A DNA stretch of 64,000 nt from Octopus vulgaris. Taxonomy: Eukaryota. The translations under genes were made by a program, and so were the position numbers. The stretch covers positions 31,248,001 to 31,312,000 of the forward strand of contig OX597829.1 in the NCBI GenBank assembly GCA_951406725.2, given 5' to 3'. Below the pieces are notes generated by a model. That model was not told the origin of the DNA. It did no database searches and worked only from the letters and a program-made list of their open reading frames with translations. This document shows positions 838 through 49,115 of the stretch, piece after piece; the first letter of the stretch is position 1, and every line of letters starts with the position of its first letter.

Positions 838-1797
838 TGGATGTGTAATGTCAGTGTGTATACTTGACAAAGTGTAGGTACCTTGAGATAAATGTTGGAC
901 CTAAGAAGCATCAGATGTGGTGGGCAAGAGAGACAACTGCGCTGGTATGGTCATGTGGTGAGAATGGAGGAGGATGGCTGTGTGAAAAAGTGCCACACCC
1001 TAGTGGTTGAGGGAACCTGTGGAAGAGGTAGACCCAGGAAGACCTGGGATGAAGTGGTGAAGCACGACCTTCAAACATTAGTCCTCACTAGGGAAATGAC
1101 TAGCGACTGAGACTTTTGGAAATATGCTGTGCTTGAGAAGACCCGGCAAGCCAAATGAGACCATAACCTCGTGGCCTATGCCAGGGGTGTAACCTGCCCG
1201 CTTATGCGTACCATTTTCTTCCTTGAACACTAAACTCTGCTTGCGAAGACCTGTTGAGGCAAGTGAAATCAAAATCACATTTGATGACTGGCATCCATAC
1301 TAGCGGGGTGCAAAGAGCACCATACGAGCGTGATTGTTGACAGAGCGGTTAATCAGCTTCTGTGCCAGTGGCACATAAAAGGCACCATTCGAGTGTGATT
1401 GTTACCAGCGACGCCTTACTGACACTTGTGCCCATGCTAGTAGGGTGCCAAGAGCACCATCTGAGCATGATCATTGCCAGAGCAGCCGGTGGCATGTAAA
1501 AGGGCACCATTTAAGCGTGATCGTTACCAACGTCGCCTTACTGGCACCTGTGCTGGTGGCATTTGTAAAAAGATTCGAGCGAGGTCGTTGCCAGTACCAC
1601 CTGACTGGCCCCTGTGCCAGTGGCACGTAAAAAGCACCCACTACACTGTCGGGGTGGTTGGCATTAGAAAGGGCATCAAGCTCTAGAATCTCTGCCAAAT
1701 CAAGATTGGAGCCTGGTTCAGCCATCTGGTTCGCCAGCCCTCAATCAAAATCGTCCAACCCATGCTAGCATGGAAAGCGGATGTTAAACGATGATGA
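838..1797 (+). mobile_element. 5'-truncated RTE-like LINE: ORF C-terminus plus 3' UTR with internal tandem repeats
   Basis: ORF 892-1110 LRWYGHVVRMEE...GRGRPRKTW is a typical RTE C-terminus. Imperfect GCCAGTGGCACGTAAAA..GCACC repeats at ~1300-1640, ending in the (GAT)n tail. Confidence 0.85.
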
Positions 1798-1815
1798 TAT
1801 ATATATATATATATA

Positions 1816-3250
1816 ATCATCATCATCATTCAACATCCATTTTCCATGCTGACATGGTTTGACAGGAACTGGTAAGGCCAGAGGTTGTACTAGGCTCCAT
1901 TGTTTGTTCTGGCATGGTTCCTTTGGCTGGATGTTCCTCCTAATGCCAACCACTTCACAGAGTGTTTACTGGGTGTTTTTTTATATGACACCAGTATGAG
2001 TGCTTTTAACACGAAACAATCACTAGTGCTCTTTAAGTGGTACCAGCACCAGAATCAATTTCCCTTTTTTCTTGGACAGCTCATTTTGAAAACAGCAGGG
2101 CTCCAGACATCTTAGTCCTTTGTTATCTCCTTCACAAGGCTCAGTGTCTTGAGATTGGCCTTCATTACTTTATCCCATGTCTTCCCCTTCCATAAGTTCC
2201 ATCCACTTTAAGTGATTGACACTTCGGTATACAACTGCCCTCATCCAAACACATCACATGACCAAACCAGTGCAGTCTTCTCTCTTGCACACTGCAGCTA
2301 TTTTCTCTTAAGCCTAACTTTTCCCTCAATGCATTTTGATTTTGTTGCGCATGTACACTGATGTTGCACATCAAGCAGAGCATACTAGCTTCATTCCTCT
2401 CTAGTCTTCACATTTCCTCTGCATTTAAGCCCCCATATCTCACCACCATATAGAATTGCTGTTCGTAAACATGCACCATACAACCTTCCATTAACTCAGA
2501 GATCGAGAAATTTGGTTGCCAACAGAGGCAAAAGCATTTTGAATTTTCTCTATCCTATTCTTATTCTAGCGATTATGCTTTCTGTACATCCTCCCCCACT
2601 ACTAATTAGGTCACCTAGGTAGCAGAAATTATCCACTACCTATAAAGAACTTCCGCAACATTTAAGAAAATCAATTTCCCAAGTAGTTCTTATGGCTCCT
2701 GTGCATCATCCACATACAAACACTACACTCTCTGATAACCTTATTATTCTATTGCACCTCTTGTGTGTCCATAACTTGCACTGGGTACACCAAATGGAAT
2801 TGTTGCCTACACCTTTCCTGCATATCAAGCTGAGCCATTTATCTAATGAGGGAAGGGTCCTGTCCATTTTCTTGCTTACTAGACCCCTAGTCTTTGCTAA
2901 GTTAACCTTAAGGTCCTTTGATTCCAAGTTTTACTTCCACATCTGGAATTTTTATTTCTAGTTCTGTTATAGAATCAACCATGAGAGCTAGATCATCAGC
3001 ATATAGCAGTTCCTGGGGGAAGCCAGTCTTGAATATTTCTGTTATGTCCTGGAGGACGATGATGAATAGGAGGGGACTGAGAACCAAACCCTGATGAATG
3101 CCTACATGCACACTAAATTCATACCTATACTCATGGTTAACTCTCACCTTACCAACAGAATCTATTCTACATGACCTGTACAGCTTTCAAAAGCTACTCA
3201 TCTGCCCCTAGCTTCCTCAGAGCCTACCATATCACACAGTGGGGTACACA
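1816..3250 (-). mobile_element. Decayed RTE-like LINE containing the reverse transcriptase domain
   Basis: Fragmented ORFs: GIHQGLVLSPLLF and ELLYADDLAL (RT motifs, 2908-3147), LKVNLAKT..CRKGVGNNSIWCTQC (2706-2927), RLHWFGHV..GRGR (2165-2383). The 3' tail is at 1816-1860. Confidence 0.9.
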
Positions 3251-3879
3251 CACAGTGTCATCAGCAGCTGCTTTCTATGCTGGTATGGGTTCGATGGTTT
3301 AACAGAATCTTGGATTGGAGGATAACTTTTTCCTCTAATGCCTCAGTTTTGGTATGCACTTTATGGCAGAATGCCTTTTCTAACACCAACCAGTTTGCAA
3401 TGCATTCTGTATAATTTTTCTTAGTAGCAGCATTACAAAGTTGTCTTGACAAGGGAAAGACTAGAACTTTCTCTTAATCCTGTGTTATCCCAGTTCGATT
3501 TAGCAATGACTTTACAGAATGTATTGAGTCTTTTGATGGCTCCTGTACTTCTGATGTCACCTTGCAACTAAAGAGAGAGCTCCTATGAATGAGAGAAAGA
3601 GAATAAAAGAGCAAGTGTTGAATTTAGGTGAGGTATTGAGAAGTTAAAGTATGACGGATGAGGGGGAGGAAAAGGTTTATTGCTGTCACACAGTTAGGGA
3701 GGAGAGTAATAGAAACATCGCTAGAGAAGGGGGGAAAGGGAAGGAGTAATGTCAGGAGTTAGCAAGAGTGATTCAGGAGATAATAGAGTGGGTTGAATAG
3801 AAAGAGATTCAGAGCTATTTTGCAGTGAATGTGGGTGGGGTGGGTAGGTGGAGTTAGGGGAGGCTCCCCCCCCCACCAG

Positions 3880-4894: not shown

Positions 4895-5699
4895 AAATGC
4901 TTTGCTTTTGGTGTTGTCGCTTGGTAATAATACAGATTGGTATATAGTCACCGACTGATCGACATCTCTCCGTCTAAGTTGATTTAGTTACAAACCGGCC
5001 ACGTGTCTGATACCATATGTATTCATACCACGGCTGCCACACCGAGCAATGGTTCAGTAAGCAGAATACTTTAACATGGTCGTGCAGTCAGCTGATCTTC
5101 CACCCATGTTCAGGGTTGGGGGAGGTAGAAAAAAACTGCTAAATGTTAAATGGGGTTCCTTTTAAGTCCATAAGTTTAAACGTAGACGATTTGTTGTGAC
5201 GCCTACTAGATGCTTGTTTTATCAAAAAGTTCTGTAAATGCTTAATTGTAAATTTAAGAGAAAAAAAGGAAAAAAAATGAACTCATGTGAGTGTTACTAT
5301 GCACCAGCATGTGCATAAGTATGTGCATGGGATGTCTATTTTATTTACTGCTAATTTGTTTTTAAGACTAACTTTCTAAAAGTATGCTTCTGTTTTGAAG
5401 AACGTTTATATACATGTATGTATGTATATATATAAATATATATATATATATACACATGTATATACACTTCGTATTTAATTTCAAATGATTGTTCTCTTAT
5501 ATAATCCACTAAAAAAAAAAATTAGGATATATAAACGGTAACATTTTTTTCCTTTAAAAACATTTTCTAAGAATACTTCATATTTCTGTTAATGCTATGC
5601 TATTGTTACATCTGTTTGCAGTTTTTAAGCATTTAAAAAAAAACATCCCTCATTCATCAGTTCACAATGTAATATCTATTGAACAAAAAAGAGAAAAGA

Positions 5700-5732
<33 letters not shown>

Positions 5733-7200
5733 TATATACATACATACACACACCTATATATTATTTTCTTACTTTCGTCGAACCATCATTACGTTGTTAT
5801 ATAAAACATTTTTATACTCTTGGATTGTTCTGTATATGTAGTAAAGGAAAATTCATAAATATATTAACTATGCTGTATCTATTTTCGTAGAGTTGTATAT
5901 AATTAAAAAAAAAGAAAAACATTATAACATGTATATAAAGAGCAAACTTATATTGAGTTTGTCAATATGTTTTTATAGAAGTCGTTTTGTGTCTTGTTAT
6001 TGTATTTTGCTCAATTCCTCATATTGATGTTTTATGCTCATTCAGAGTGTTGCATTTATCATTTTTCCTCTCTCTTTCTCTCGTTCTCTATAAATATTAA
6101 CAAATGGTAATAATCGATACTGCATTTATACGTGTCCATTCGACCCTTTTAACGCCCGTAAAGCATCCTATTTGCGTATTAAGAATTGCGCTATGATATT
6201 TGATAATTTTTGCAAGATATACTGCCTTAAGTATATGTTTAAAAACAAATAAATATTGTATTCCATATTAATGTTCTATGATATAATCCAGATTTAATTG
6301 AAATCGCTATAAGATTTGTCCTACGTGCTACGCAGCTTGGACCAGCTGATTTCTCTTTTCTTTCTTTTTTTTTTTTTCCTCGTCTAATGAAATATACATA
6401 ATGGTGCAGGGAAGGAATCATTCTGGATCACGTTATTCAGATGCGCAATATTTTAGTCTCATTTATAATGAAAAAAGTTATTTATAATTGTAAGACAATC
6501 GCTTAGGTATGAAATAAAATGTAGATTTCGATATAATGATCTTGTCTGTTGCTTCTAAGACCCATTCGTTTATGTGCATTTATCAAATGTATTAATTACT
6601 GGCAAAATGTAATAAAGATGAAAAGAAGAAAATCGTTCACCAGAAATTATACATATTATACATGAAACTGTGTATTATATATGTAGCAAAAAAAAAAATG
6701 TGCATTTTACGTTGTAATAATATTGTTGCATGTTCTTCGCACTTGAAAATTCATCAATCTGTGATAGGTGATTGAAACACGCTATAAGTGATTCATAAAA
6801 CACTAAAGGTTATCATCTATCATCCATGTAAGTAGTGTGCAAAAATATAACATGTCCGATTTGTATTATTTTTATAATAGTAGTAATTAGGTGTTCCTGA
6901 ATTTGTGTCAATTTATGCTTGTACTTCGAACTACAAACACACTCGCTCTTTTTTCTTTTCTTGTTTTCTCTTTCGCACTTTGTTCCCCTCCCCACCCTTC
7001 TCTTTCTTTGCTTTTCTTTTCCTTTTTTTTTTTTTACAAATACACTTGTGTTGTGTGTGCTTGTTGCTGTTTACATTAAATAATTGGGGGATGGGGGGAT
7101 ATGTCCGTAATTCTAGTTTTCTTAATAGGATTTTTGCAACGTGAATAAAATCAATGAAAGGAAAATTGCTGCTATCAATTGTGATTGTGCGTTGTGGTGC

Positions 7201-7237
<37 letters not shown>

Positions 7238-7340
7238 CGAGAAACAATTTGAGAGAGGGAAGAGAGAGAGAGAGACAGAATGGGAGAAGAGAGACCAAGA
7301 GTGAGGAAAGAGAGAGAGAGAGATGATAGATAGAGAGTAG
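7201..7340 (+). promoter_or_regulatory. (GA)n purine tract in the putative Nova promoter region
   Basis: Long GAGA repeat ~650-750 nt upstream of the start codon. The TSS itself cannot be fixed from sequence. Confidence 0.45.
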
Positions 7341-7735
7341 TTTAACAGTGGGAGTGATAGATGCAAATTATTTGCCAGTCTTCTTTCTACTGCCACTACA
7401 ACACACTACAGTTATAACAGACATTCTCTGGATATATTATGGAGAGAGAGAGAAGTTGTAGATGATATTGTTGCACTTTGTTTGCCAACAAGTCCTAACT
7501 GCTTAACTACATTATACAATAAGAAAACATACATACACGCACACATAGAGAAGCTCTGGAGATACACACATACATATATATATATATATAATAATAATAT
7601 ATATATATATATATACGTTTTTTTTTTTCATTTTCACCCTTTCTCTTACTCTCATGTTCACATTCAACTTGCTAACTTTCTAATATCGTCGACGGCTACT
7701 TGAACTACCTACCTAACCAGGCTGGCTCAGCCCTA

Positions 7736-7898
7736 TCACCATCGCCACCACCGCCATCATCATCATCATTATTGCTACAACAACCACCACCACCGCCGTC
7801 ATCATCATCATCATTCACCGTCTCACTCAGTCTCTCACTCACTCTTTCACTCACATACACACTCTCACTCTCTTTCATTACCTCTACTCTCATTCCAT
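7736..7898 (+). repeat. YCAY-dense (CCA)n/(TCA)n/TCAC array just upstream of the Nova start codon
   Basis: About 27 YCAY tetramers in ~165 nt by manual count. Confidence 0.8.
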
Positions 7899-7970
7899 TT
7901 TATAAGTGAACTATTCAATTAGTCTCGTGCTCGTGCCGTGGTACTCCGCGAGATCTGGGCTTAGCGAAAG

Positions 7971-8088
7971 ATGGCGATGAGTTTCGATGGCATGAATGGG
8001 TCAGATATGGACACATCCGACTCCCGAAAAAGACCCTCAGACGCCGAAAGTGATAGCGGGGTGACGAAGCGCTCAAACCAAGGCGGAG
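7971..8088 (+). CDS. Nova: Nova/pasilla RNA-binding protein, coding exon 1 (N-terminus with NLS-like motif)
   Basis: AAAGATGG start. Reads MAMSFDGMNGSDMDTSDSRKRPSDAESDSGVTKRSNQGG, matching the vertebrate NOVA1 DSRKRP...TKRTN motif. Donor GGAG|GTTAGA, phase 1, compatible with 41201. Confidence 0.9.
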
Positions 8089-9923
8089 GTTAGATACATT
8101 TTGAATATCCTTTTGTATTTTTTTTTTTTAACCATTTTATTTTCTCCATTTCTATGTCTTTTTGCCTTTTTCTTTTTTTTTTTTTTTTGCATCCTTCCGA
8201 AACGGCAATTTCTACTTCACTCATAATATCTCTCTCTCTCTTTCGGTCTCTCTCTACCTTCTACGTAATATATATATATATATATAATAAATATATATAT
8301 GTATATATATATATGTGTGTGTGTATATATGTATGTATTTATGTGTGTGTGCCTCTTCAATTAGCATTATTCCTTCGTTTCAACTTGGTTTTTTTTTTAA
8401 ATCTATGGGTTTTCTTTTATACGTTAGACTGGAAAACGCTATCGCTTGTCTTGTATCCCCCCTTTCATTCCGTTTCTTGCCTTTCTTTCTCTTCACCCCT
8501 CTCTCCATAGAACGTTCTCTATCAATCTATCCTCATTATAACACATTTTGGTATTCAAAGTAAATCGTTATTGCTTACAATAATGACCACTTGTCCAAAA
8601 GAAGTGAAACGAAGGAGAAAGAAGCAAGCTTCACTTCAACCGACATGCAAGAAATGGCAATGAAATCTTCCTCCTTATACTACTGCCTGAATTAGAATTA
8701 GTAAAAAAAAAAAAAAAGAGAGAGAAAAGTAGGGGGGGAGAACGTATTAGATAATGTAGTCCTAGTTACATCAGTACATAAATGATATATATACATACAC
8801 ACACACATAATGTTACACATGTATATTCTATATGAAATACGTACATTTTAAATATACTGAAAACTGCATTTATTGAGATTAAAATATTGAGGAGTATATA
8901 TACACACACACATTCTAAGCTCTTCACTGTCGCTATTCAGAGTTTCTTGCTAAACGTCCTTTCAGATGACGACTAATATTAACTCTTTTTTTTCCTATAC
9001 GAATTTTATGCTTTATTCCCTTCTGTATCTCTATGTGTTCTCTTTATATATATATGTATATATATAATATGTATATATATATATATATATACACACACAG
9101 TGTATTGGTGTGTACTCCCTCTATATAATGTTTGAGACGGGATGGTCATGGTCGGTAGATCTTTTGAAACACATTGAAAAGTCTTGATAGAGGAGGAGGA
9201 GGGGGTGTTAATTATGTGAGTCGGTGAGGGACTAGGCAACACCAACCACTTGTCCAAATAATTTGCGTTGTCATACAATACACACACGCATATATGTATG
9301 TATGTATGTGTGTGTCTATACATGTATAGATAGATAGATATGTATATATTATATACATATAAGATATATGTGTATATATATCGAGTAAAAGTCGGCATCG
9401 GTTGAGAGGAAACCAACGATTGTTGGCAATATGGCCGACGCCACCATCAGCTCCGACGACGTCGTTTACTGCTTTCACCAATGTTGTTGGCTGCTTAAAC
9501 ACTGCTGCTATATAAAACCTACTGCGTATAAGGCAGTATAAGATAGCAGCAAGGAGAATTTTAGTGTTTTTATTACTAATCATCTCCTTTCCTTTTTTTT
9601 TGTTTTATATATATATATTACATTATTTTTGATTTTGGTATATTTCCTACCTACCCTCTCTCTCTCTCTCTCTCACATGAATAATTACTCTTGACTTTGC
9701 AAAAAAAACACTCATTTTAACAATTTTATTTTTCTTACCCCCTTTTATTCACACCACCTTCCCCATTCTTTTTCACCATTGATATTGGAAATATCCCACT
9801 GGGTGTTTTTTTTTTCTCTATCGTTTTAGATTAGTTTCGTTCAGTGTTAATGAAAAATTAAGCTAACATAAAGTGACGCTATTAACACATTGACGTGTAT
9901 ATTATGTGAATATGCGTGTGTAC

Positions 9924-9967
<44 letters not shown>

Positions 9968-10340
9968 ATGTATGTATGTATGTATGACACTACTAGTACA
10001 TAAATGTAGATATACGATGTATATATTAATCACATCTATATGACAGTATTTAATACACAGTATGTGTGTATGTAATTCTGTGTGTACTTACGTATGTATA
10101 TCTAATATATATATATACACACACACACAATCTAGTGGAATATTGCTAATTTTGAGTGCGTACATCTATATATAATAATTTCGATTTTTGATTTATATAC
10201 ATACGCATGTAATTTTGATATGAAATTTTAATGTTTATTCAAAATGTTTGTCATAGGAATATTAAAATTTTATATAAAGTTAAAATTATGCATATAGGTA
10301 CATTTGTGCAATATTAATTCATATACGTATTACTATATAT

Positions 10341-10386
<46 letters not shown>

Positions 10387-11069
10387 TATATAAACATTTG
10401 TACAGTAAATGTTAAAGAATATTGGAATATCGAGAAAAAAAAAAGCGAAAAGAATATATCTAAATGTCCTGTTATAAGTTAATTTTTGTAAATTTTCATT
10501 ATGAAAGAAGTGTGGTTGTCCTTCTTGGTGTTCCGTACGGGACAGATAGAGATTAGTTTGTCATTCAAAAGTGTGTGTGTGTCATAGGATGGTTGTTGGA
10601 CCTTTTTGATAATTCTGACACAAGTAAAGCAATTCGTATTCTTGGCTGGATTATTTAAAACCATTTGTTCTATATTTAAGATTTTTTTTCCTTCTTTAAT
10701 ATCAATTAAATTTATATTTTCTGTGTGTATGTGTGAAATAAATCCTTCAGATATGTCGGTGAACTAGATGACTATGTTGTATGATCCTGAATTGACTTTT
10801 ATATAACTACAGTCAATAGTTAGAAACCTCTCCATCTTTGCATTTTTATATCGGCTTGTGTGCCCCTCCCACCTTTACTCCAATCCCTTCCGAGATGTAA
10901 TTGTTCATAGATCCACTCCACCCCCTAATTATTAAAGTTCTAAGCTATTAGTGCGTTCTGCCAATAAACCGAATACGTGCGCGCGCGCGTACGTGCACGT
11001 TCTCAATTCATTTTGAATAGTTCCTATAAATTAATTTCAGCTGTGAATTATAACGATCAAAAGAATAAA

Positions 11070-11102
<33 letters not shown>

Positions 11103-11979
11103 GCTTAATTTTTTTTAATGTAGAAGGATTTTCAAATACAAAATATGCTCAGGAAAACGAAGGTTTAAGATTTACTAAAGTCGACATTTTATCGAATTAT
11201 AAATGTACGATGAACATGTATCGTTTTAGAGCCGATATTTTATGGCAATCTTTAGAAGATGGTATTTCAGCGACATGCAAGAGAAGAAAAGAAGAAAAAA
11301 AAACCCTCATTCTGATATCTCGTTCTGAATATTACGTATGACAGGCAGAACTATATATAGCAATGAATTCGGAGTACGCGATTCAGACAGCCTGAAGGTG
11401 GGAGCCGACATCACTTCGCATTGCGCAAAAAAAAAAAAAAAAAAATGACTCGACTCGACCTACATACTTCCGTCTATAATATTGAAGACAACAACCTTTT
11501 CGATAGATGTGAGCTAGCAAGTTTTCCTGCATGGAGAGGTATTATCTTGCCTTCTTCGGAGTTAGGAAATTTGAGGTTTATAATTTTATTACATATAACA
11601 CTTAGTGATTTTAACGGGTTTCTCTTGATTATCCATCCTGTTTAGTGCTCGTTGGATTGGATGGATAGCTAAACAGATAGCTAGGTAGATAAATGATCGC
11701 AAATGTATGTAGGACTTGTGTGGCCACGTCGTAACAAGAGCAACACCCACTGACACAGCTAACGTGATGTCTAGCTATCACTTGTAGACATTTCTTTTGC
11801 TAATGCGGACACGTGTCAATTAATATCAAGTATTCTTTTTAATAATTTTGTATTATATTTAGATGTTGAGACAGTTTGCTCTCTACATTCTTTAAGTCGA
11901 ACTATATATATATATATATTTAACCGATTGGTATTGTATTGCTGCTTCGTCTGTTGATCATGTCAGAACAAGTATAACG

Positions 11980-12025
11980 ATGGCTACGTATGGCACATCT
12001 GATATATCTACACCCGAACTACCAG
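11980..12025 (+). CDS. Candidate alternative first coding exon of Nova (MATYGTSDISTPELP-G)
   Basis: ACGATGG start context and 46 nt to CAG|GTATCT, phase 1. It lies in a CpG-retaining, promoter-like region. No transcript evidence. Confidence 0.35.
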
Positions 12026-12378
12026 GTATCTGATATCTACCTCTCTACATCGCCCCTCCCTTATTTGTCTCATTATATATATATGTATATATATATATCT
12101 ATATATATATATATATAGGAGCAAATAGAAAATACTCATTTGTTACGTACTTCTTCGTCCTTTTCTATCCTCTGCCCTCAACCCCTTAGTGGTTTTGCGA
12201 CTGAACGTCGTTCTACCACTGTGTATGTGTGTTCGTCGTTTCTACATCCTTTTTGCAAAACTATGCGTCAGCCAGTTCTACGCATTCTGAGATAGTCATT
12301 TAACTGATTCGTGGGGTGGTTTCAATAGAAATCCTGCTAATACGACTGAAGATATCTTGTAATATATTAATACACTCA

Positions 12379-12415
<37 letters not shown>

Positions 12416-15400
12416 ATATATATATATATATAATATATATATATATATAATATATATATATAACACGCAGACACGTACAGGCATAGAGTAAACTATTTTC
12501 CCATTGCTCTCTCATTTACGTAGGAATGTAGTTTATTTGCATGGGTATTTCTCGACTATAATACTCAAACACGATTGTATAGCAGTTTTGGCTGTAGGTC
12601 ATTTGTGTCATCTTAGAGGTCGTAGCTTAAAATACTTTTTACCGTCGTCCTCCTTTGAAAACTATAAATAATTTCGGCTTCATTGTTATGTTAATTTAAT
12701 TAATTAGGATAGCATATTCTTTGGTTTTAATTACGTTTAGTATAAACTTATAATTAAATACTGTCCTTTTAATCTGCCTGAAATGTATTCGAATCCCTAC
12801 AAGAAATATTGGTAGTCTGATATATTTGGAAGTGGAATGTGGCATAGGCTACAAGTATTATTTCTTTGTAGGTTGATAGAGCAATTAAAATGATTAGTTG
12901 GGTTAAATCTGTTAGTGTGATTGCATCAGATACTTTTGAAGGTTTCATGAACAGTGTATTACATTTTCTGTCTGTCGTTTGTTGAGTTTTAAAAAATAAA
13001 ATGTATTAAAATTAATTTTTGACATTTCATTTTCAGTAACATACTGTTTCCATCGATGACCAAGGCGTCATTTATTAGTACTTGAATGAAATATGCGTGC
13101 AATTTTAAAAATGACAGTATTTGTTGCTTAAACTGATATAAAAAAATGCTTTTAAGACTTCTTTTTTAGTTGAAAGTATATTTTAAATCGTCTATGATAT
13201 AATTTGGTGGTAGGTAGTGTATTCAGAATATTCAATACATTTTTTTTCTCATTATTAATGGCTGCATTCATAAAAATCAGCTGATTCTTGATAAGCTATT
13301 GAAAGTTGCTGTAATATATTATTTTCCCCTGTAGACAATGAATTTACAATTAAAACGTTGTCACATGATCAAATTATTTGAAATATTTTTACTCATTTCC
13401 AAATATAAGTTTTTCTTCATCCTGTTTTGGAGAATGTCTTTTTTGTTAATTATCTAAAAGGCAAACAAGTATAATTTAGATCATTTAAATTAAATGATAT
13501 ATTATTTGAATGTATATATTAGTCAGTCAATTAAAATATTTTGAAACAAACTATCTGTAATAATTAAAGCTTTCATTTTAACAATATGTAAAAATATACT
13601 GGAATTTGATAACTATTAGATATTGATACACAGTTGTTATTTCAAACCCCTTTATTTATATTGTCAGATTTAATTAGTTTATTTTCGTAAATGTAGAGCT
13701 CTGGATATTTCATTATATTTTGTGATTCAGGAAACATTCATTTGAGAGCAAACATATGCAAGTATTAAGAGGGGTTAAGGTACAAGAAGACCATGTGCAA
13801 AAGTACAGCTTGAGGTTAATGTGCTGTGCTGGGTGTCAATGCAAAGTTATATCTAATTATATAACTATATTTGAATAAATATTTGTCAGTGAGTGACTTA
13901 TAAAATTTGTTTTGTACTATAGATTTTAACTTAGTGTATGAAAACTTCACAACAGACTGTGCTTTGTTGAAGATATCTACTTTGCTGGAAAGGTCATTGA
14001 AAAGGATTTAGTTTGTTAGGTGAACAGATAAGGTATTGTTTGTTGTGTTTAACTATTTATTGAATGTTACAGAGGTTGTGATACTGATTGCAAGATACAA
14101 ACGGAATATTGTTAATTACTAAACATTCAGTGAACTGTTGGGGTGGGGGTGGAGTGGGAGGACTGGAAGAAATAAGTGAAGTCAAGTATTTAAAGTATTT
14201 ATGATGTTTACTGCTTAGCTGAATATATATTAATCTAGATATTTTATAAACAATAATCATTTTAGTGGGTTTTTTTTTTTTTATAATTGAAAAAAAGTGT
14301 TACATTTTTGTTGTGATACAAATGTTAACTTTTACGAATGATATAGTTTTTACTTTTTCATTTATATCACTAAAACTAATCGTAATTAGAGTATTATAGT
14401 AACTATTTTAAAACTAAAACTTGCATCTTAAAATGAAAAATACTTCCAGAACGTAACTAGATTTTAGTAAATGTAAATTCAGTATTTAAGTAATAAACGT
14501 TTTTAGCATACCTTATTTAATCTTGAGATATTCGCTATGTTTAAATTTTTTCATCCTTTTTTCACTCCATTAGTATATTTTATGATCTAATATCTTCTTG
14601 TTTTCATCATTAGTGTATTAAGGATTAACTCTGTTCCCAAAGCAAATTCTCAAATTATGAATTTGTTATATTGTTTACTGCTACTATTTCATAAATGTCC
14701 TCAGGGAATTAAAGTGCTGGGAGGGATGGTTTGGTGAAGTTTGCAGATATAACCGCATTTCGTATTTTTCATGTGATGAGTCACGTACTCAAGTTTATTG
14801 TAAAAGAATTAATTTTGATAGCGTTTAAAATTTTTTTTTGTCGTTTATTGCAATTAAAATATTGCAACGATTGCAAAGGAATTAGTGGGTGTAGCTTATT
14901 GTATAGTGAGAATTATCTCCCTTGCATTGAGTAACGTGGAACATGAATACTTGTTTATGAAATTAATGAAATATGTTAACTAAGATTTGTTACATATGGG
15001 CTAATTAATGTTGTGCTCATATATTTATATATGTATATATATATATTTTTTTGGCGGTGGGGCATTGCAAAAAGGAAATTTCTAATTTGTTATGGAAAGC
15101 AGCATGGCTAATGTATAATAAATTATTTAAATATTTTAATTTGTCATGTGTAGGTTATCATATTCTAATATTGTAGATTTTTCGAAAATTCATTTCAACC
15201 CAAATGTTCACTTGATTCCTGGTCTTATTTTTTCAATTGTTGGTTTTCAGTTTTTATATCTTCATAGTCTGCTACTCTAAATAAAATCTGTTCCATAAAT
15301 TTGTTGACCAGAAATAAATGATTTGAGTGTTATAACAGAAATTTACATATCTTCAATAAAAAGAAAAAAAAATATTGCATTTTATAATCACAATATATTA

Positions 15401-15465
15401 ACCAGCTTTTTAGATTGTTTGGTCTCAATTATTTTAGTAAACATATTTTCAACATATGCTTATAG

Positions 15466-15750
15466 TCGGTTCTGGGTTCAGTCTCACTTCATGACTCCCT
15501 GGGCAAGTGTCTTCTACTATAGTTTCAGGCCAATCAAAGCGTTGTGAGTGGATTTGGTGGATGGAAATCCTGTGTTTTTGTGTATGTTCTCCACCTCCAC
15601 TTGAGAACTGGTGTTCAACAAAAAAGACTGGTAGAATAAGCATCAGGCTTAAAAAAGAAAGAGGACTGGGGTTGATTCATTCAACTAAAATTCTTCAATG
15701 CAGTGCCCCAGCATAGCTGCAGTTCTAATGACTGAAACAAATGAAAGAAT
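15466..15750 (+). mobile_element. tRNA/CORE-type SINE, degenerate
   Basis: GGGTTCAGTC..GGGCAAGTGTCTTCTACTATAG..CAAAGC.TTGTGAGTGGATTTGG, ending in AATGACTGAAACAA like 24945-25331. Confidence 0.8.
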
Positions 15751-16029
15751 AATATAAATAAATACATGACTGATCAGTTGTTGTTGAAATAACAATCGGT
15801 CTCATACTTAAGATGAAACCTTTTTCTTTTCAATTTTCACATATATGTTCTTCAGTTTCATATCTGTTGACCATTAGGTATCTTATTTGTACCGGGCCAA
15901 ATTAAGAGTAGGAATCTTCATTTCTAAATTATGGAAGTAATGTCGTTATCTACCATATTGCTGACATATGTTCCCATTGATTGAGAAATAAGGATTCTTG
16001 TTTGAATCCAAGAATAAGTGGTTGGTGAT

Positions 16030-16220
16030 AAAGAGATATGTACTGTGTATAAATCTTAGAGTGTAAGTGATTTAAAAAGAAAACTGGGTATATGACGCAT
16101 TAGATGTTGAGAGGACTATGCTGGTTTGGCCATGTGATGAGAACGGATGGGGATAGCTGCATAAAGAAGTGTCAATCTAATTGTGGAAGGAGTAGATGTG
16201 GGATGAAGTGAGAAAGTATC
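16030..16220 (+). mobile_element. RTE-like LINE C-terminal fragment
   Basis: Encodes LCWFGHVMRTDGDSCIKKC, homologous to 892-1110. Confidence 0.7.
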
Positions 16221-16420
16221 TTCTGTATAGAGGAAGAGCAAAACTGGAAATCTGGGAACATTGATGATAGATTTAGGAACTTTGTTGTTCTAAACAAACT
16301 TCAAGGAAATTAAAAAAAAGACCTTGATAAAATTTTTGTGGAATAGTATGAAATTAACTGTCAAGGTTTTGCTGTGTTCACTTAAATTTTGATTTAACAG
16401 GTGGTATTTATATTGTTACA

Positions 16421-16547
16421 CATCATCATCATCGTCGTTTAATGTCTGCTTTCCATGCTGGCATGGGTTGGACAGTTTGACTGAAGGCTGCACCAGGCTC
16501 CAATCTAATCTGGCAAAGTTTCTACTGTTGGATGCCCTTCCTAATGA
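16421..16547 (-). mobile_element. LINE/SINE 3' tail, minus strand
   Basis: (CAT)n CGTTTAATGTCTGCTTTCCATGCTGGCATGGGTTGGAC is the reverse complement of the tail at 1-40. Confidence 0.8.
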
Positions 16548-17254
16548 CATGAAATTGTCTGAAATATCCTCATCTCAGTTTTTTTCTTATTTGCTATCAA
16601 CACTTGTTTAAAGTTTAACTACAATGTCATTGTATGTACATGTGTATGTACACACACACACACACATTATGGTTAACCTTTCTGCCAATTTTGGCATCGT
16701 TTTAATAGAATAAACTATGAAAATAAATCTAGATATATGTAATGTATAAATTCAACTTAAACTAGAAACCTTATTTGTAAATCAGTAGTAACATATGTCA
16801 GTGGCTGGCAAATAAACGCAATATTCCCTTAGTTCAGAAATTGTTTGCTCATAGGAAGTGCTTGATAATTGATAGAATATTCAGGCTAAGATGTAACATA
16901 AGCTATTTTATTCCATTACACATTGTCTTTGACTTACACAATTTGACAAATTGAATTCAGTGTTAAAAGAAGTTACAAATTGCCATGTCTTTGTAGTTTA
17001 TATAAAAATTCCAGTGATATAATTTTTTGTTGAAATTTTTACTTATTGATATTAAAGCTTGGTTTCAAAGGATAAGGGCATTTACAAACTATTTTGCATT
17101 AAATTTCATCTTCTGTAAAAAAAAAAATCCTACATTTTGCTCAATTTATATTAATTTCTCAATTAGTTGGAAATTGAGGTTTTCATAAAGATATTTTGTG
17201 AACTTGAAATAAATATTGTTACCCTTTTGTAGCTCTTTACTTGTTTATTTCTAG

Positions 17255-17305
17255 GTACTATTGGGACACCTGATGACTACAGCTGTGAATATAAATCTGA
17301 TTCAG
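17255..17305 (+). CDS. Candidate 51-nt in-frame cassette exon of Nova (G-TIGTPDDYSCEYKSDS-G)
   Basis: Acceptor TTTACTTGTTTATTTCTAG|GT and donor TCAG|GTAGGT. Length is 17 codons, phase 1-1, with no stop in the Nova frame. Confidence 0.6.
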
Positions 17306-20300
17306 GTAGGTTGACTAATCTTTACACACACACACACACACACAAGTGAATAAAAGTTATACATATACGTGTGTTTGTAAATATATTTATATACATGTTT
17401 ATGTATATGAATGTATTATGTTCATGTGTAATCTGTGTGTATATGTATGTGTGCATATTTGTGTTATGTGTATGTGTGTATATGTGTGAATATGTATATA
17501 TGTTTGTGTATGTATGTGTGTGTGTACTTTATATACATGTGTGTGTGTACATTTATATACATGTTAAATGTGATTGTATGTATATATATATACACACACA
17601 TACTCACAAATAGACATGAACTACGTATATTTGATAATTAGTTCTGACTTAACATGAAATTATCAATATTCTGTCTTGTATCCTGTTAACTTAGCATTGT
17701 CAAAAAGTTGCATTTGTGAATATGCATTTTTTCCACTCCCCCATTTTGTACAATTTCAACTATCATTCATTGCTAGTTTACATTAACATTGCAATCATCT
17801 GTTCATTTGCTTTTCATTAATTAACTAAAATTTCATATTTCATTGATATTGCCAGAATTGAATTTCCGAATTTTTATTATGAAGAAACAAAAAATATCCA
17901 AAGCAAGAATTTTAATTTCATTCCTCCCAGTTGAAGATGGGATTCATTCTTTTTTTTTTTTTTTTTTATCAAATTCATTTTCACAGATTGACTGTGGAAA
18001 TATTCATAGAATCTGAAATTTCATCACATTTCATGAAAATGTTTGCTAAATCTAAAAATATAACTGCTTTTCTTAGAATTACATAAGGATTATTGTAGAG
18101 CTTTAGTTAGAACAAAATCCAGAGAAGTTATTTTCACAAGTTTAAGGATGAATATGAATTTTAAATATGGTTATTTCTAATTCCTACTTTACTAGTTATG
18201 CCAGATTGATCAAATGCATGCAATTATTCCTATACTAAAACATTTCACTTTAAAAAAAATTTTTTTTACCAAGTTTGTTTGCTCTTCTTGCATTTTCCAT
18301 CAAAATTCACAACTGATTTATAGAATTTCTACCAGTTAAGCATTATTAATATTGGGCTTGTTTTTGTAAAAATATAGACACTTCGATAAATTACAAGTAC
18401 TGTCATTTAGCAAGAAAATATTTCAGTTTATTGGTTTTTCTACATTAAAAGGAATTTCATTTGTCAGGGAAAAAAATTTGTTAATATAACTGATTTGTAA
18501 CTGATACTTAAAATTGTAACAACTGATATCCAAGCATTCTGGAATGTGTGTGTGTATGCATATACCTAGAAATTTTGTTGCCTAAGAATTTTTGAACATT
18601 GGTTAAAAAATTATACCATTACACATGACATTTGCTGTTATATCTGCTTAAAAGGAGATTTACCAAGAAAATTTTAAAGAAATGAGATTCTGGTTTTTGA
18701 AGTAAAATAGGGAATTTCAGTAAACATGCCCACTGATTTTAAATGTGCGTGTAATATATATATAATTACATTATATTCAACGTGTTTGTAATGGATGAAC
18801 ATTTATATTTTACATGTGATTGTGTGCAGATTTGGTTAAATTATGAGGTTTTGATGGCTGAAAATAATTTTTAAAAAAAATAGAAATAATGATAATGGTT
18901 GTCTGATTTGTAACATTATTTTTCCTGATAATTTTTCTGTAGTTTTCTGAAGAAATGGCTTATTGTGATAAGTTAATGTTGCATTGCAGAGAGTAGTTAC
19001 AAATCAACAATAGTTGTATGGTCAATGTAGGGTATTGGGTGTGTCATTTATTGGTGGTTTATAAATGTTATATGTGGCTGTATAGTTGAGTTACATTGTG
19101 CAGCACCATGGGCAGGTGTCCATTATATATTTGTGCTTGTATGTACCCTTGTTTTGACATCATGTGATGGCTGCAAGTGAGAGTGTCACCATCATATATG
19201 ATGTTTTCAGACTGCCATGAAAAACAGGTCTAGCCATGCATCAGAGAATTCTGTCTGTCCCATGAAAGGAAGGAAAATTGATGTTGAAATGATATGTATT
19301 TAGTATTTGTATGTTGTATGCAACAAGCATTTTGCAACTAGTCTCTTTTTGCACTAATTAATTGCTCAGTTGGCATCTTTGCTGGACAAGTTGCTCAGGA
19401 ATAATGAGTAATGGATTTGCAGAATGATATCTAAAATCAATTATAATGAAATATTTAAAATCAGTTCACCTTGTATGATTCATCAAGATGAAGTATGAGC
19501 ATTAGTATACATTTCTTGGTAATTCTGGTAGTGAAAAGGAAGTTTGGTGTGTATAAATCTTAGAACTCTTTTTGTATCTTTTAAAAAACCAAGTGAAAGC
19601 CTAGTGAGAATCCTTTCCCCTTTCTTTACTGCTATATACAGAAACATTTATAAGGAACTGTGTTCAGTTTCCACTTAGTTCTCATTTTTTTTTTTTTTTT
19701 GCTTTCATATTTGTATGTTAACATTAAAGCACTGCTAATTATCATTAAAAGGAAATGTAAAATATAAAAATCAATTATTTTTAAGAGTTGTGAAAAATAA
19801 GGGATGCAAATTTTCTTAGAACACAAGAGTTACAGAAGCAATAAAAAAATAAACTATTACACTGTAAGCAGTGTTATAGTTAGAAACTTTTTACCCAATA
19901 AAAGATAAGAATGATAAGGAATTTCAAAATTAATGGACAGAATACCAAATAAAACTATTGAAGTACTTGGTTGCAATTGCAAACCATACAACTTTTAGCG
20001 GACACCATGACTACATAGTAAATGCTGTGTGAAGCAGAACTACTTGAAGAATGACGTAGCAACACTTATCTTTCCTTTGTTTCTATAGAAATTGTCTGAA
20101 TGGATAACATTGTGGTTAAGTAACTATTGATTATCTCACCAACCACTTGTAAATATAATATCCTGTAAATATAACATCCTGGATACACATTTTTTTAATT
20201 CAGTCATTATTCAAACCATAAATATGGAATCTAGAGGTGCGAATTATTTGGTTTCTAGAAGATTGTTCATGGGTGGTAATTTAATGGTTTGCAAATGAAA

Positions 20301-35513: not shown

Positions 35514-35627
35514 GTATTGAAAGTCAGGTCTGGGCACCCTCATATGCATACGAAGATTGTCAACCCGGGGACGAACCGTTGAGACATAATATGATGGCTT
35601 CTCTTCAAATTTGGCACAAAAACCAAG
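35514..35627 (+). CDS. Candidate 114-nt in-frame cassette exon or alternative N-terminus of Nova
   Basis: Strong donor CAAG|GTGAGC (phase 1) and a weak acceptor TCTTGATAG|GT. Open frame G-IESQVWAPSYAYEDCQPGDEPLRHNMMASLQIWHKNQ-G. Local GC/CpG island within an AT-rich intron. Confidence 0.45.
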
Positions 35628-41200: not shown

Positions 41201-41341
41201 GGGAGAATGTCCACCTTAAGATTTTAGTTCCAAGTGCAGCTGCTGGAGCCATTATTGGCAAAGGTGGAGAGACAATTGCACAAGTGCAGAAAGATGCAGG
41301 AGCCAGAGTAAAGATGTCGAAAGCTAATGATCATTATCCTG
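41201..41341 (+). CDS. Nova: Nova coding exon 2 (KH1, first part)
   Basis: TTACAG|GG...CCTG|GTAACT. Reads [46 protein letters not shown] with a GKGG loop. Phase 1-1. Confidence 0.96.
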
Positions 41342-41922: not shown

Positions 41923-42068
41923 GGACATCCGAACGAGTGTGTCTTATAACTGGTTCAGTTGAAGCTGTTAGGAAAGTCCATACTTTTATTATGGAAAAAA
42001 TCAGGGAAAAACCAGAACCTAACCCCAAATTAGATGAAAATAAAAGTACCTATGAACGGCACCGGCAG
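41923..42068 (+). CDS. Nova: Nova coding exon 3 (KH1 end plus linker)
   Basis: TTCCAG|GG...CAG|GTAATA. Reads TSERVCLITGSVEAVRKVHTFIMEKIREKPEPNPKLDENKSTYERHRQ. Phase 1-0. Confidence 0.96.
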
Positions 42069-42760: not shown

Positions 42761-42832
42761 ACAATAGATTTAGCTGCTCCAACCCAATTTGACAGGCTCC
42801 AGCCCTCTGATAGTCTAGAACCATTTTTACAG
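42761..42832 (+). CDS. Candidate 72-nt cassette exon between KH1 and KH2 (TIDLAAPTQFDRLQPSDSLEPFLQ)
   Basis: Acceptor TCATTCTTACTTTCAG|ACA and donor TTACAG|GTCAGA. It is 24 codons, phase 0-0, matching the host intron, with no stop. Confidence 0.65.
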
Positions 42833-43793: not shown

Positions 43794-43947
43794 GTGAAAA
43801 TCTTAGTCCCTAATAGTACTGCAGGAATGATAATTGGTAAAGGTGGCATTTATATAAAACAAATTAAGGAGGAAAGTGGAGCGTATGTGCAGATATCTCA
43901 AAAGTCAAAAGAAACAAATTTGCCAGAACGCTGTGTAACAGTTGCAG
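43794..43947 (+). CDS. Nova: Nova coding exon 4 (KH2)
   Basis: TTTTCAG|GTG...GCAG|GTGAGT. Reads [51 protein letters not shown]. Phase 0-1. Confidence 0.97.
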
Positions 43948-44640: not shown

Positions 44641-45806
44641 GTGATGTTGAGTCCAACAGAAGAGCTGTTGACATGATATTACAGAAGATTGTTGAAGATC
44701 CTCAAAGTGGAAGCTGTCCAAATATCAGTTATGCAGATTACACAGGACCAGTGGCCAGTGCTAATCCTACCGGGTCCCCTTTCGCTAACACGGACTATAT
44801 ACAAAACAGAAGTACAGAGATAGGATTAGCTAATAATAACTTTGGTGCTTTTGGTTTTGGTTTTAATGGAAATGCCTTTGGAAACAATATAGGAGCTAGC
44901 ATGACGAATCTGAACTTGAATGCAGCTTTAAGTGGTGGCACTAGTAATAGCATTAACAGTACAGCTTTGGATAACATAAAAATAACTCTGCGAGGAAATG
45001 GATTTTCAGATCAAGCAACCGAAGAAATAAGTACTGCCATGAACACTTTAGCTAGCTATGGTATATTAGCTAGTATGGGTTTAGGAATGGGCAGTTTGAA
45101 TAATTTGGCAAACTTAGGAACTGGAAGCGGTCTAGGAACAGGACTGAATCTTAATTCATCTGGCTTGCAAGGCTCTAGCATGATGTCAAGTAGTACAACT
45201 TCAACCACAAGTGTGAGCAGCCCTTTCTTTAACACTACCACCAGTACTAACAGTGCTGGTAGCCTTTTTGGTCCAGTTGGCAGTGGGTCATCCGGATTAG
45301 GAAGTTCAGGCTCCACTGGAGCCAACTCTAGTCTTTTCAGTAATTCCTCTCCTAGTATTGGCAACGAAAGATATGGGGGAAGTCCAATGCTTAATGATTC
45401 ATTTGGCAATGCTGCTAATTATCCCAGCAATCCTGGGTTCACTGGAACTCCAAGCATAGCTGGCGACAGGTCTCCTAATGTTAATCAAAATTCTTTTGGC
45501 CTCGGAACTGGCATCTATAGCCCTGCTGATGACAAATCAGCCCCGGCAACTAAGCAAGAGATGGAGGTTCCGGAGACAATTGTTGGAGCTATCCTGGGAC
45601 CTGGCGGGAAAGGCATCGTGGAAATACAACAGTTCACGGGCACCAACATTCAGATTTCAAAAAAAGGAGTCTATGTACCTGGTACCCGTAATCGTGTTGT
45701 CACCATAACTGGTACTCCTAACAACATTTCCAAAGCCCAGTTATTTATCCAGCGGCGCCTCCAGCAAGAGGAAATGAAGAGGGCTCGTCAAGCTTCTACC
45801 CGTTAG
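44641..45806 (+). CDS. Nova: Nova last coding exon (KH2 end, long G/S/N-rich linker, KH3, stop)
   Basis: Long pyrimidine tract ending TTGTAG|GT. Contains KIVEDPQSGSCPNISYA..GPVASANPTGSPFA (Nova signature) and KH3 EVPETIVGAILGPGGKGIVEIQQFTGTNIQISKKG..PGTRNRVVTITG. TAG at 45804-45806. Confidence 0.97.
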
Positions 45807-46028
45807 GGTACCCTCTCCCGCCATTTCATTGCACGGAAATTCCCCCTTTTTCTTTCTTTTTTCTTTTTTTTTCTTAAATCCTCTCTCCCTCACTCTCTCA
45901 CCCATTCCTCTTTTTTTTTCTTAACTTCTCCCACTTTCATTTAAACATTTTTATTTATTTTATTTTATATTTTTTGAAATCAAATTAAACCCATCCCGAA
46001 TCCTAACCATAAATATAATTCAAACAAA

Positions 46029-46063
<35 letters not shown>

Positions 46064-46283
46064 CATATATATACATATATATATATGCACAGACACACAT
46101 ACACACGTGTGCGCGCATACATATTCATGCATATTCAAATAAGCACGCCATGTACATACATGTGTGTCTGTGTATATACGCATATAGGTGCGAGTATATA
46201 TGTATGTATATACTACACTCATACACTTTTGTGTATTTGTGTGAATATGTGTGTGTGTGTGTGTATATATATATATGTGTATA

Positions 46284-46317
<34 letters not shown>

Positions 46318-49115
46318 CAAAAATCATTTTCCTCTTTCCACAGCCTTGGAAATAGGAATAGAAAACTTAAATACATTGCCTCTCCAATTTCTAGATATAA
46401 CAAGATGAAAGCTAACCTTTTTTTCTTTATTTTTTCATCAAATTCATTCAGTATATAATTCATTTATAAATTAAATTTCAAATGCTCTAAATGAATCCCA
46501 TACAGCCTCAGAAGTGTTTAGTATCACATGCACACATACATCCATATACAATTACATACACACACACACTCACATGCATATATCTTCTCAAGGTGGGGAA
46601 AATTGAAATGCCTATGTTAATGAGCTTTTTTAGTGTTACGTTTTGTGTTTATATATATAAATGTATATATGTGTATGAATGTGTTTATGTGTTTAATTGG
46701 TATTTTTTACGTCTGTTTTCCATGCTATCATGGATTTAGATGTTCTAAATATGGATATTTTCATGAACTGTGTGACTGTGTGTGTGCCTTGTGCATTGTG
46801 TGTATATATTTGTATATGTTTGTGTGTGTATATATATGTGTATATGTATATACATACATACATACATAAATGTGCACACAGATTTTTTTGATTATATCTT
46901 TTGAGTTTTTATTTATATTAATTTAATGCTTTGAAAATATTTGTAAAAAATCAAAAATTGAAAAAAATCTATTTAAAATGTTACACTCATCGTATTCATA
47001 TTCTAGAAATAAGATACATTCTAATCTGGATATCTAATCATCAGTATGTTCTAAAATCGTTTAAGAACGTTTTGGTTTTATTTATTTATTTTTTTTTCAA
47101 ATGGAAATCATAACTTTAATGTTCAGGTCAAATTTGTTAGCTAATTGAGGCATTTATTTCTATATTTTTTAAATGTTTCTAGATTTTACATAATTTATTC
47201 AATAGCTATCTGATTGCCATATTCTCACTACAGAAAATCATCAATTTTTGTCTGATTGTCATAAACATGTTTGTGGCTGAGTTTAATGTATTCTGATAAA
47301 TCTTACATCTTATAGTGAAAAGGTTGGCTTAATTTGAATTTCTGGTAGTTGGAAAGACAAAGTGACTATTTCTGTTATTTTCTTTTTGATTCACAGAGGC
47401 TTCCCTGAATATTATGAAAATGGAATGTGGTATTGAAATATCTGTTGCAGTCTCTTCAAGCAGCTTTAAAAACTGTTTTATTGAACCAAAATAGAATTAA
47501 CTTTTCAGTGCTTAGGTCAAAATTTGTCTTTCACTGATACTTCTCATCAAGTATCAAAATATGTAGGTTGGCCTAAGATGAAAAAGAAATCTTGAGCAAG
47601 AAAGATGGTTATACCTGATTATAACATTATACATTCATTATTGTTTCATTTTGCAAAAAGAAAAATAACAAAAAAAGACAAAAAAAAGAAAAAAAATATG
47701 AAGATAAAATGTAAAAAAAAAAAATCATTCTCTTTTTATTTTCCTAATAACCTATGTTTATTATATCAATGATTTATTAACTCGTATTTCAGAGCACCTA
47801 TGTAATGAGAAATCAAAATCATCTTAATTCTATTAAAGCAATTTTTCACCCTATAGATTCCATAAAATCTCCACATATCTATCTCTAAACTCTATTTATA
47901 CCTATTTATATCCATGTATTTATATTGGTTATATCAACCTTTTTCCTTGCATAAATAACTTCTAATTTCTAAACATCTCATTATTTGATTTATATTTTCC
48001 TCATTAAAATGTTTTAGTCTCTAAATTTCAGTTCAATTGTTATAGAATTTAATATTAAAATATATATTTATATATAGTATGTATATATATGTATATATAT
48101 ATGCATACGTATATATCTTGTTGCAATGTTACAGTGATTCAGTGATTATAGTTTTCAATACTGTTGCCCTGTTTTGTAATGTACTAGTTTCTAGTAGCTC
48201 CACACATACACACACACAAAATAAAACCCATCCTTTAATGTTTGTAATTCATTTGCAGAATTTAAAATATTTACTCCATAAAGTACTTTAAGTTACACAT
48301 GCTTCTAAATAGCTCTAATTTAAATCTTGTCTGATGAGAGAAACTTTACTCTATAATAGTCTTGTACTTATATTAGATATTGAAAATATTTTAAGTATTT
48401 CTAAAAAATTTTAAGCACATTTTGTGTGTGTGTTAGTCTCTGTCTTTTAGCAAGGTGTCTCATTTCATTAGGGTTTTAGGTGAATCCTTTAGCTTAGGTT
48501 ACATAGTTAATTTTCTCTCTATTATTTTGCTATCAATATTTATTCGTGAGTGTAATCTTCACAGCATTTTATTTAACAATTGTATATGAAATGATTAATA
48601 GTTAGTCATGTGTCAGTAGATTTATACTCTTCCTTTTCATGTTGCATACATATTTTTGGAGAATTTAATTAAGGAAACAATGTAACAAAAGGCATTTTAA
48701 TGCAATTATCTTCAGGTGTTTTCTTCTGAATCTTAATATTTTAATCTTAAAAGTAGTTATGAATACACTATTTTCACAGCTTTCTAAATATGCAATCAAT
48801 TTTGAACTTTCCATTTATTTGTGCAATTACGTCATCATGATTGTACTATATTAATACTATTTTATCTTCTAAACCATGACAATATTTCATTGAAACTATG
48901 AGTATATGATATTTGGTTTCATTTAATTAGATAGTTTGATGTTACACCCCATTCTATCAGTATATTTTACTAAGGCTAATCACTGAACTATCTAGTTGTT
49001 ACATTTTTTGCATGTTAGCACATTTTATTTAATTAGAAATTACATTTTGCAAAGTGAACTCTATGCAAATATTTTGCCTTAATATTGGAAATGGTTAAGA
49101 TATATAGTCCTAGTC

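Follow-up and report, generated by a model that had tools for sequence, protein, structure and literature searches.

The 5' untranslated region (UTR) of the octopus Nova gene carries an exceptionally dense array of YCAY, the motif of the Nova protein itself. The array comprises 27 sites at positions 7736-7898 on the plus strand of the DNA analysed here (a stretch of 64 kb, referred to as the window), 73 nt upstream of the ATG and 190 nt upstream of the donor of the first exon, exon 1a. Judged from the DNA and from assembled contigs, the element is real, unusual and transcribed, and its anatomy makes autoregulation plausible. We tentatively propose, at a little short of an even chance, that Nova binds the array in exon 1a of its own transcripts and thereby exerts negative feedback specific to the isoform that bears the N-terminal RKRP motif.

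By its sequence, the window is an Octopus Nova locus. It encodes three KH domains with intact GXXG loops, KH3 giving its best matches to the solved domains of NOVA2/NOVA1 (E 1e-20), and in its last exon the identity to Octopus sinensis and O. bimaculoides proteins that bear the name Nova-1 is 100%. The KH-coding exons were placed by sequence comparison and gene models at 41201-41341, 41923-42068, 43794-43947 and 44641-45806 (plus strand, the last including the stop). The ATG at 7971 opens the peptide MAMSFDG...DSRKRP...KRSNQGG, so that both the gene and the start codon had been named correctly in the earlier, sequence-only reading of this DNA.

According to RefSeq models, of which only the junction at 8088 was confirmed in reads, the gene has four alternative first coding exons (starting at 5238, 7971, 11445 and 11980), all of phase 1 and all joined to 17255 on the plus strand. 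The coding part of exon 1a (7971-8088; contigs, protein alignment and gene models) contains the RKRP motif and ends in a phase-1 donor at 8088. The upstream exon E0 (5238-5286, donor GTGAGT) is joined to 17255 in the O. sinensis isoforms X3 and X8, database gene models in which exon 1a and the array are skipped. Exon 1b (11445-11538; isoforms X2 and X7) and exon 1c (11980-12025; isoforms X5 and X9), also taken from database models, lack RKRP. The common acceptor belongs to the 51-nt exon 2 (17255-17305; contigs and models), to which the 8088 donor is spliced. The number of YCAY motifs in the 400 nt upstream of the first-exon ATG is 12 for E0, 31 for exon 1a, 2 for exon 1b and 5 for exon 1c; the array is thus found on exon 1a only and, per the models, is intronic in E0 transcripts. 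A role in first-exon choice, suggested earlier for the array, would gain a concrete substrate from these four exons if the database gene models are correct.

Among the four first exons RKRP is encoded by exon 1a only; E0 encodes a different basic stretch. The motif does not vary in any of the 19 N-termini aligned, a set picked for having it, and DSRKRP...KRS also occurs at the N-terminus of mouse Nova1 as printed in supplement 18 of PMC12445529. By sequence, the RKRP of exon 1a is homologous to the nuclear localisation signal (NLS) predicted for exon 1a of Ciona Nova in the portions of that paper available to us (PMC12445529). There, exon 1a (MMM, predicted NLS) and exon 1b (MLN, no NLS) are arranged in the same order as in octopus, and RKRP is included or omitted accordingly. 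The two systems differ in that the octopus models have four first exons and in that a YCAY leader element is not mentioned for Ciona, a statement that covers the main text, in which 'UTR' does not occur, and the ATG-distal part of the -922/-1 region. In bivalve Novas, alternative N-termini occur that are weakly similar to exon 1b (tblastn restricted to the window, E 0.09-0.16). From these resemblances, the choice between N-termini with and without NLS seems to be old in molluscs, as in Ciona.

To characterize the array, YCAY motifs were counted exactly on both strands of the 64-kb window. The earlier count of 27 plus four sites on the sense strand was reproduced: the starts of the 27 run from 7736 to 7895, the last site ending at 7898, and four upstream sites start at 7628, 7634, 7652 and 7658 (7628-7661, plus strand). 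The 27 tetramers are 11 TCAT, 8 TCAC, 5 CCAC and 3 CCAT, 20 of them non-overlapping. Minus-strand (RTGR-type) sites do not occur inside the array, the nearest one beyond it lying at 7906. The runner-up 165-nt stretch in the window holds 10 YCAY if sought on the plus strand and 13 if sought on the minus strand. When fixed 165-nt tiles of both strands were scored, 773 of 774 contained at most 10 YCAY, compared with 22 in the array tile, and none of 2396 tiles from 50 other Nova loci exceeded 12. The array is also denser than a mouse cluster of 23 YCAY in 200 nt that was called striking in the accessible part of PMC3737533. It has at least 3 YCAY per ~45 nt at close spacing, the density used in mCarts-type searches. 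In RNA folding predictions its YCAY sites are unpaired with a mean of 0.84 vs 0.49 over all 4-mers. A structured RNA element was ruled out, as the leader folds no better than its shuffles (z +0.9).

The array consists of 42% C and 4% G. Within it, 27 of 33 CA dinucleotides lie in a YCAY, vs 1037 of 3962 in the whole window, and stretches elsewhere that are equally rich in C have few YCAY (68 C, 4 YCAY). Mononucleotide shuffles of the array gave a mean of 8.5 YCAY and reached 27 in 0 of 10000 cases, and dinucleotide shuffles gave a mean of 19.6 and reached 27 in 3 of 10000; both frequencies are uncorrected for the preselection of the array as the densest stretch. After perfect tandem repeats had been reduced and the second copy of a duplicated 42-mer removed, 12 YCAY were left in 78 nt, a number that none of 10000 mononucleotide shuffles attained and that 5 of 10000 dinucleotide ones did, again uncorrected for the choice of the densest stretch.

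Transcript evidence was sought in 4 of 22 listed sequencing runs (X1, X15, X16 and X21). None of the listed runs is recorded as RNA, and the RNA nature of X1, X15 and X16 is deduced from the splice to 17255. In each of these three, 7637-7730 and 7878-8090 are joined in a single contig by 147 letters, in which the letters of the array are masked; the length across the masked part equals that of the window in all three. The contigs depart from the window at 8090, and their next letters match uniquely at 17257-17270, the start of the in-frame 51-nt exon. They therefore represent spliced transcripts with the array in their 5' UTR. This placement, which had been conditional in the sequence-only reading, now holds in three of the four runs in the sense that the array lies upstream of the ATG in a spliced transcript; starts and levels are beyond what such contigs display. 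In X21 (organism D) matches were confined to poly-T stretches and were uninformative. Between 0.83 and 1.00 of the words of 7660-8095 were found in 19 of the 22 listed runs, belonging to 6 studies.

As seen in the three contigs, the 5' UTR of exon 1a spans 7637-7970 (plus strand) and may extend further 5'. In X1 a gap at 7407-7636 is preceded by a low-depth piece at 7345-7406, neither of which places the start. It had been considered earlier that all starts might lie downstream of 7900, which is contradicted by contigs reaching 7637 or further 5'; a major start near 7900-7920 is possible and compatible with them. The sole upstream ATG in 7560-7970 opens a candidate upstream open reading frame (uORF) of 9 codons, MFTFNLLTF*, at 7654-7683 (plus strand, sequence scan), just 5' of the array. 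An N-terminal poly-His extension was ruled out by an in-frame stop 2 codons 5' of the ATG. An AG-free stretch at 7562-7718 precedes two weak candidate acceptors at 7720 and 7730, which are poor in T (0.20-0.25, where 7 real acceptors have 0.35-0.60). Junctions into either position were absent from the contigs of the three runs, which drop rare forms.

The bridging contigs stem from three studies with three organism labels. Organisms B and C show 0 differences from the window over 307 compared letters and are thus very close relatives, whose agreement has little bearing on selection. Their word share of 0.83 suggests a few changes within the masked array.

Next, conservation was addressed in more distant animals. 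A metagenome scan with an exon-1 profile gave 65 pattern matches that were reduced to 50 loci in 19 upstream-sequence groups; by their exon peptide many are insect-like, two are gastropod-like and the rest belong to other invertebrates. Over the 400 nt that precede the same exon, the densest 165 nt held 0-9 YCAY in 50 of 50 loci, and the whole upstream flank at most 10 per 165 nt. Some leaders of these loci may be spliced. A comparable array was absent from 46 of 46 loci whose upstream DNA measures 350 nt or more (17 of the 19 groups, all non-mollusc-like; maximum 9), and the leaders of the two gastropod-like loci comprise just 76 and ~5 nt. Conservation of the array, raised in the earlier reading, so far finds no support, as the 46 distant invertebrate loci lack it and its sole holders are near-identical relatives; in comparison with non-mollusc-like loci, it is not a pan-animal feature. 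In a scan of genome contigs no Nova locus was found, the one match, in Pseudomonas, being due to chance, and 0 of 19 candidates in viral contigs were Nova loci. The upstream extensions of 150 exon-1 protein hits, inspected by eye where at least 22 residues precede the motif and including few molluscan ones, showed no array-like runs of His, Ile or Thr.

The block at 7921-7965 (plus strand) resembles the leader of the gastropod-like locus L001 with a local alignment score of 30, which was reached by 96 of 20000 shuffles and was the best among 49 loci scored. The likeness is limited to this proximal block, and the L001 contig begins 76 nt 5' of its ATG. Since the block is common to both, 7921-7965 may be ancestral in the leader, with the array added at a later time. 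Both blocks (octopus 7921-7965 and L001:17-72) are short and lie just 5' of the ATG; by sequence they may represent a conserved core-promoter or translation element. A common hairpin in the octopus and L001 blocks was not supported (z -0.45 and -0.46).

The array is composed of repeats. Its first half (7733-7815, plus strand, repeat family D1) is a 42-nt tandem duplication of 83% identity within a degenerate CCA/TCA triplet run, (YCA)n, and its second half (7810-7877, plus strand, repeat family D2) consists of 12-16-nt units of the TCTCAC/TCAC type. The array had been described as built from several different units. All four YCAY tetramers do occur, but they are not independent, arising from the 42-nt duplication followed by TCTCAC-type units. 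The 64-kb window has 109 tandem-repeat rows and, besides the array, three further (CAT)4-5 runs; (GA)n, (AT)n and poly-T tracts lie in the same promoter region as the array. The array probably originated from microsatellite-like repeats within the octopus or cephalopod line. Statistics on octopus microsatellites were not found in the literature searched. One (CAT)4 run, at 1818, borders a retrotransposon-like repeat.

This anatomy raises the possibility, which deserves serious weight though we consider it the less probable side of an open question, that the array is a compound microsatellite specific to its lineage and situated in an unstructured leader with little G, its YCAY content being a by-product that Nova may bind without any effect on output. 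CCA/TCA slippage, the 42-nt duplication and the TCTCAC units would be expected of such a neutral mosaic, as would its setting among (GA)n, (AT)n and poly-T tracts, and dinucleotide composition alone yields 19.6 of the 27 sites. The absence from the other invertebrate loci examined fits as well, and with many genes and motifs scanned a match of a gene to its own motif will sometimes arise by chance. Against neutrality, the enrichment outlasts the collapse of the repeats (12 sites in 78 nt, reached in 5 of 10000 shuffles that keep the dinucleotides), all three unit types yield YCAY on the sense strand, and the sole outlier among 774 tiles falls in the leader of Nova. The equal length under three organism labels argues weakly in the same sense.

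For negative feedback on the RKRP isoform speak the density of the cluster, its confinement to the sense strand, its predicted single-strandedness, its position in a spliced leader, the intact KH domains and the restriction of the array to exon 1a. Such feedback would require that octopus Nova shares the YCAY recognition of mouse Nova and fly Pasilla, that 7736-7898 is occupied by Nova in vivo, and that binding lowers the output of exon 1a. In the available text of PMC3165201, Pasilla and Nova share a common position-dependent RNA map, in which exonic binding silences. Since this map is common to both and the cluster is dense and open, octopus Nova would very likely bind the array in vitro. 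Binding need not imply function: many YCAY interactions are described as non-functional (PMC3165201), and spacing alone as a poor predictor of binding (PMC3737533), in the parts of these papers at hand.

Two routes can be envisaged. In the first, which by itself seems rather unlikely, Nova bound to the mature exon-1a mRNA would hinder scanning to the AUG 73 nt downstream; as variants, the uORF at 7654 might be favoured, or export or stability altered. Against this route stands the finding that MBNL1, when bound to its own leader, did not affect translation directly (PMC5389549, as far as its text was available), and no paper on Nova acting through a 5' UTR was found in the literature searched. 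In the second, which we regard as improbable, Nova bound to the pre-mRNA would silence exon 1a, so that E0 transcripts skip it in an MBNL1-like manner. This route is weakened by the distance of 190-352 nt between array and donor, by the lack, in the contigs of three runs, of a junction into 7720 or 7730 and by the T-poor candidate acceptors at these positions.

If functional, the octopus array would most resemble, by analogy, the autoregulation of MBNL1 exon 1. According to the consulted portions of PMC5389549, MBNL1 occupies the 5' portion of exon 1 in its own transcript, which leads to skipping of this exon in transcripts from an upstream promoter. In both genes a cluster of the protein's own motif lies in the 5' UTR part of the start-codon exon. 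MBNL1 has several promoters and an upstream first exon that can skip the start-codon exon, and a corresponding arrangement is predicted for octopus by the database models X3/X8 (5286 to 17255). The octopus exon is described here by sequence and contigs, in which no acceptor into 1a was seen; for MBNL1, exon 1 has been proven to be internal, is supported by CLIP, binding and splicing data and is conserved between mouse and human. Skipping removes RNA-binding domains in MBNL1, whereas in octopus it would remove an NLS-like motif. The autoregulation of NOVA1 exon 4 (Dredge et al., 2005, as cited in the accessible part of PMC3737533) likewise involves Nova and YCAY clusters in its own transcript, but concerns a vertebrate internal cassette exon with its flanking introns instead of a molluscan first exon and 5' UTR. 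Action of Nova on mature mRNA outside splicing is exemplified by NOVA1 and the Impact 3' UTR (PMC10382602, from the part available), although there a 3' UTR of another gene's mRNA is stabilised and no leader is involved. In mouse, Nova is upregulated upon loss of a paralogue (PMC4930328), and Nova2 and Pasilla are mentioned as having a role in the use of first exons (PMC6953062), both as stated in the portions consulted. A search of titles and abstract openings, with most subscription papers lying outside it, gave no paper dealing with YCAY elements in the 5' UTR of a Nova gene or with the regulation of cephalopod Nova.

BTR1, a plant Nova-like protein, is said to act as a translational repressor. 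As a precedent it was set aside as unconfirmed, because the review, in the part available, gives only binding of viral RNA and restriction of movement (PMC6804339).

A bolder version of the feedback proposal, which we offer as speculation and think rather doubtful, is that an array arisen from a microsatellite mosaic in cephalopods has become a high-valency landing pad for Nova. Nova or its paralogues would throttle the NLS-bearing isoform while the NLS-less 1b and 1c forms escape, and the nuclear-to-cytoplasmic ratio would be self-set via the 5' UTR. Nova is a main neuronal splicing regulator, for which feedback via an internal exon and action at the mRNA level via 3' UTRs are known. If true, a leader element on the NLS-bearing first exon would tie dose control to subcellular localisation, would be a regulatory site born from repeats in a lineage whose brains are the largest among invertebrates, and would have Nova act in a way for which the literature searched gave no example. 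If the array has no effect, it calls for caution with motif counts in repeat-rich genomes.

Two further explanations have little chance of being correct. The metazoan initiator (TCAKTY, BBCABW) has YCAY at its core, and the array might act at the DNA level as a broad initiation zone in which initiator-like YCAY seeds dispersed starts, which would also explain the strand bias. The region 7600-7970 contains 4 TCAKTY and 12 BBCABW, where 1.1 and 5.6 are expected per 371 nt from the window, and the gastropod-like L001, similar in the proximal block only, begins 76 nt 5' of its ATG. The contigs of three runs, however, extend to 7637 or beyond, 5' of the array, and the CAT/CAC triplet runs surpass what an initiator needs. 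It is equally improbable that another reader, be it a KH protein of the poly(C)-binding or hnRNP K type, a CA-repeat binder of the IMP/IGF2BP or hnRNP L type or a cephalopod Nova paralogue, sets translation or localisation without autoregulation: the array is rich in C (42%), poor in G (4%) and predicted to be unpaired, and further octopus Nova-like proteins have intact KH loops (P0042, P0084, P0095), but pyrimidines flank 27 of 33 CA on both sides, and long C runs and pure (CA)n are lacking.

Nova-like proteins with intact KH loops whose first 150 residues are devoid of RKRP (P0042, P0084, P0095, P0097, P0035 and P0085) belong to a set named from Octopus, Argonauta and a cuttlefish, apparently the product of cephalopod duplications as judged by sequence. 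The start of P0042 resembles the peptide of the 51-nt exon.

Further features were observed in and around the gene. Two in-frame cassette exons, 35514-35627 (114 nt) and 42761-42832 (72 nt), vary in their inclusion among the named isoforms. The 114-nt exon is flanked by 6 YCAY within 300 nt on its 5' side and by 9 within 300 nt on its 3' side, and is a candidate for conventional Nova splicing feedback. A mild enrichment of 17 YCAY in 500 nt was seen at 17606-18105, 300-800 nt 3' of the 51-nt exon 2, and is a possible distal enhancer. Downstream of the stop, at 45807-48306, several 500-nt bins show a mild excess of YCAY over the reverse complement (12:1, 8:2 and 11:2). The highest density in loci outside the window, 15 YCAY in 165 nt, was found in the first intron of L036, ~3060 nt 3' of exon 1. 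A motif at 7967-7976, which we take from its consensus to be YY1-like, overlaps the octopus start codon, and GCCATCT-type matches were seen by eye 5' of the exon-1 start in L004, L026, L032 and L036. In intron 1 a GC-rich patch at 9380-9500, matched by none of the named isoforms, includes an ATG at 9431 and several half-palindromes of the CGTCG/CGACG kind. Finally, fragments resembling the reverse-transcriptase ends of non-LTR retrotransposons were recognised by eye at 890-3470 and at ~16000-16200.
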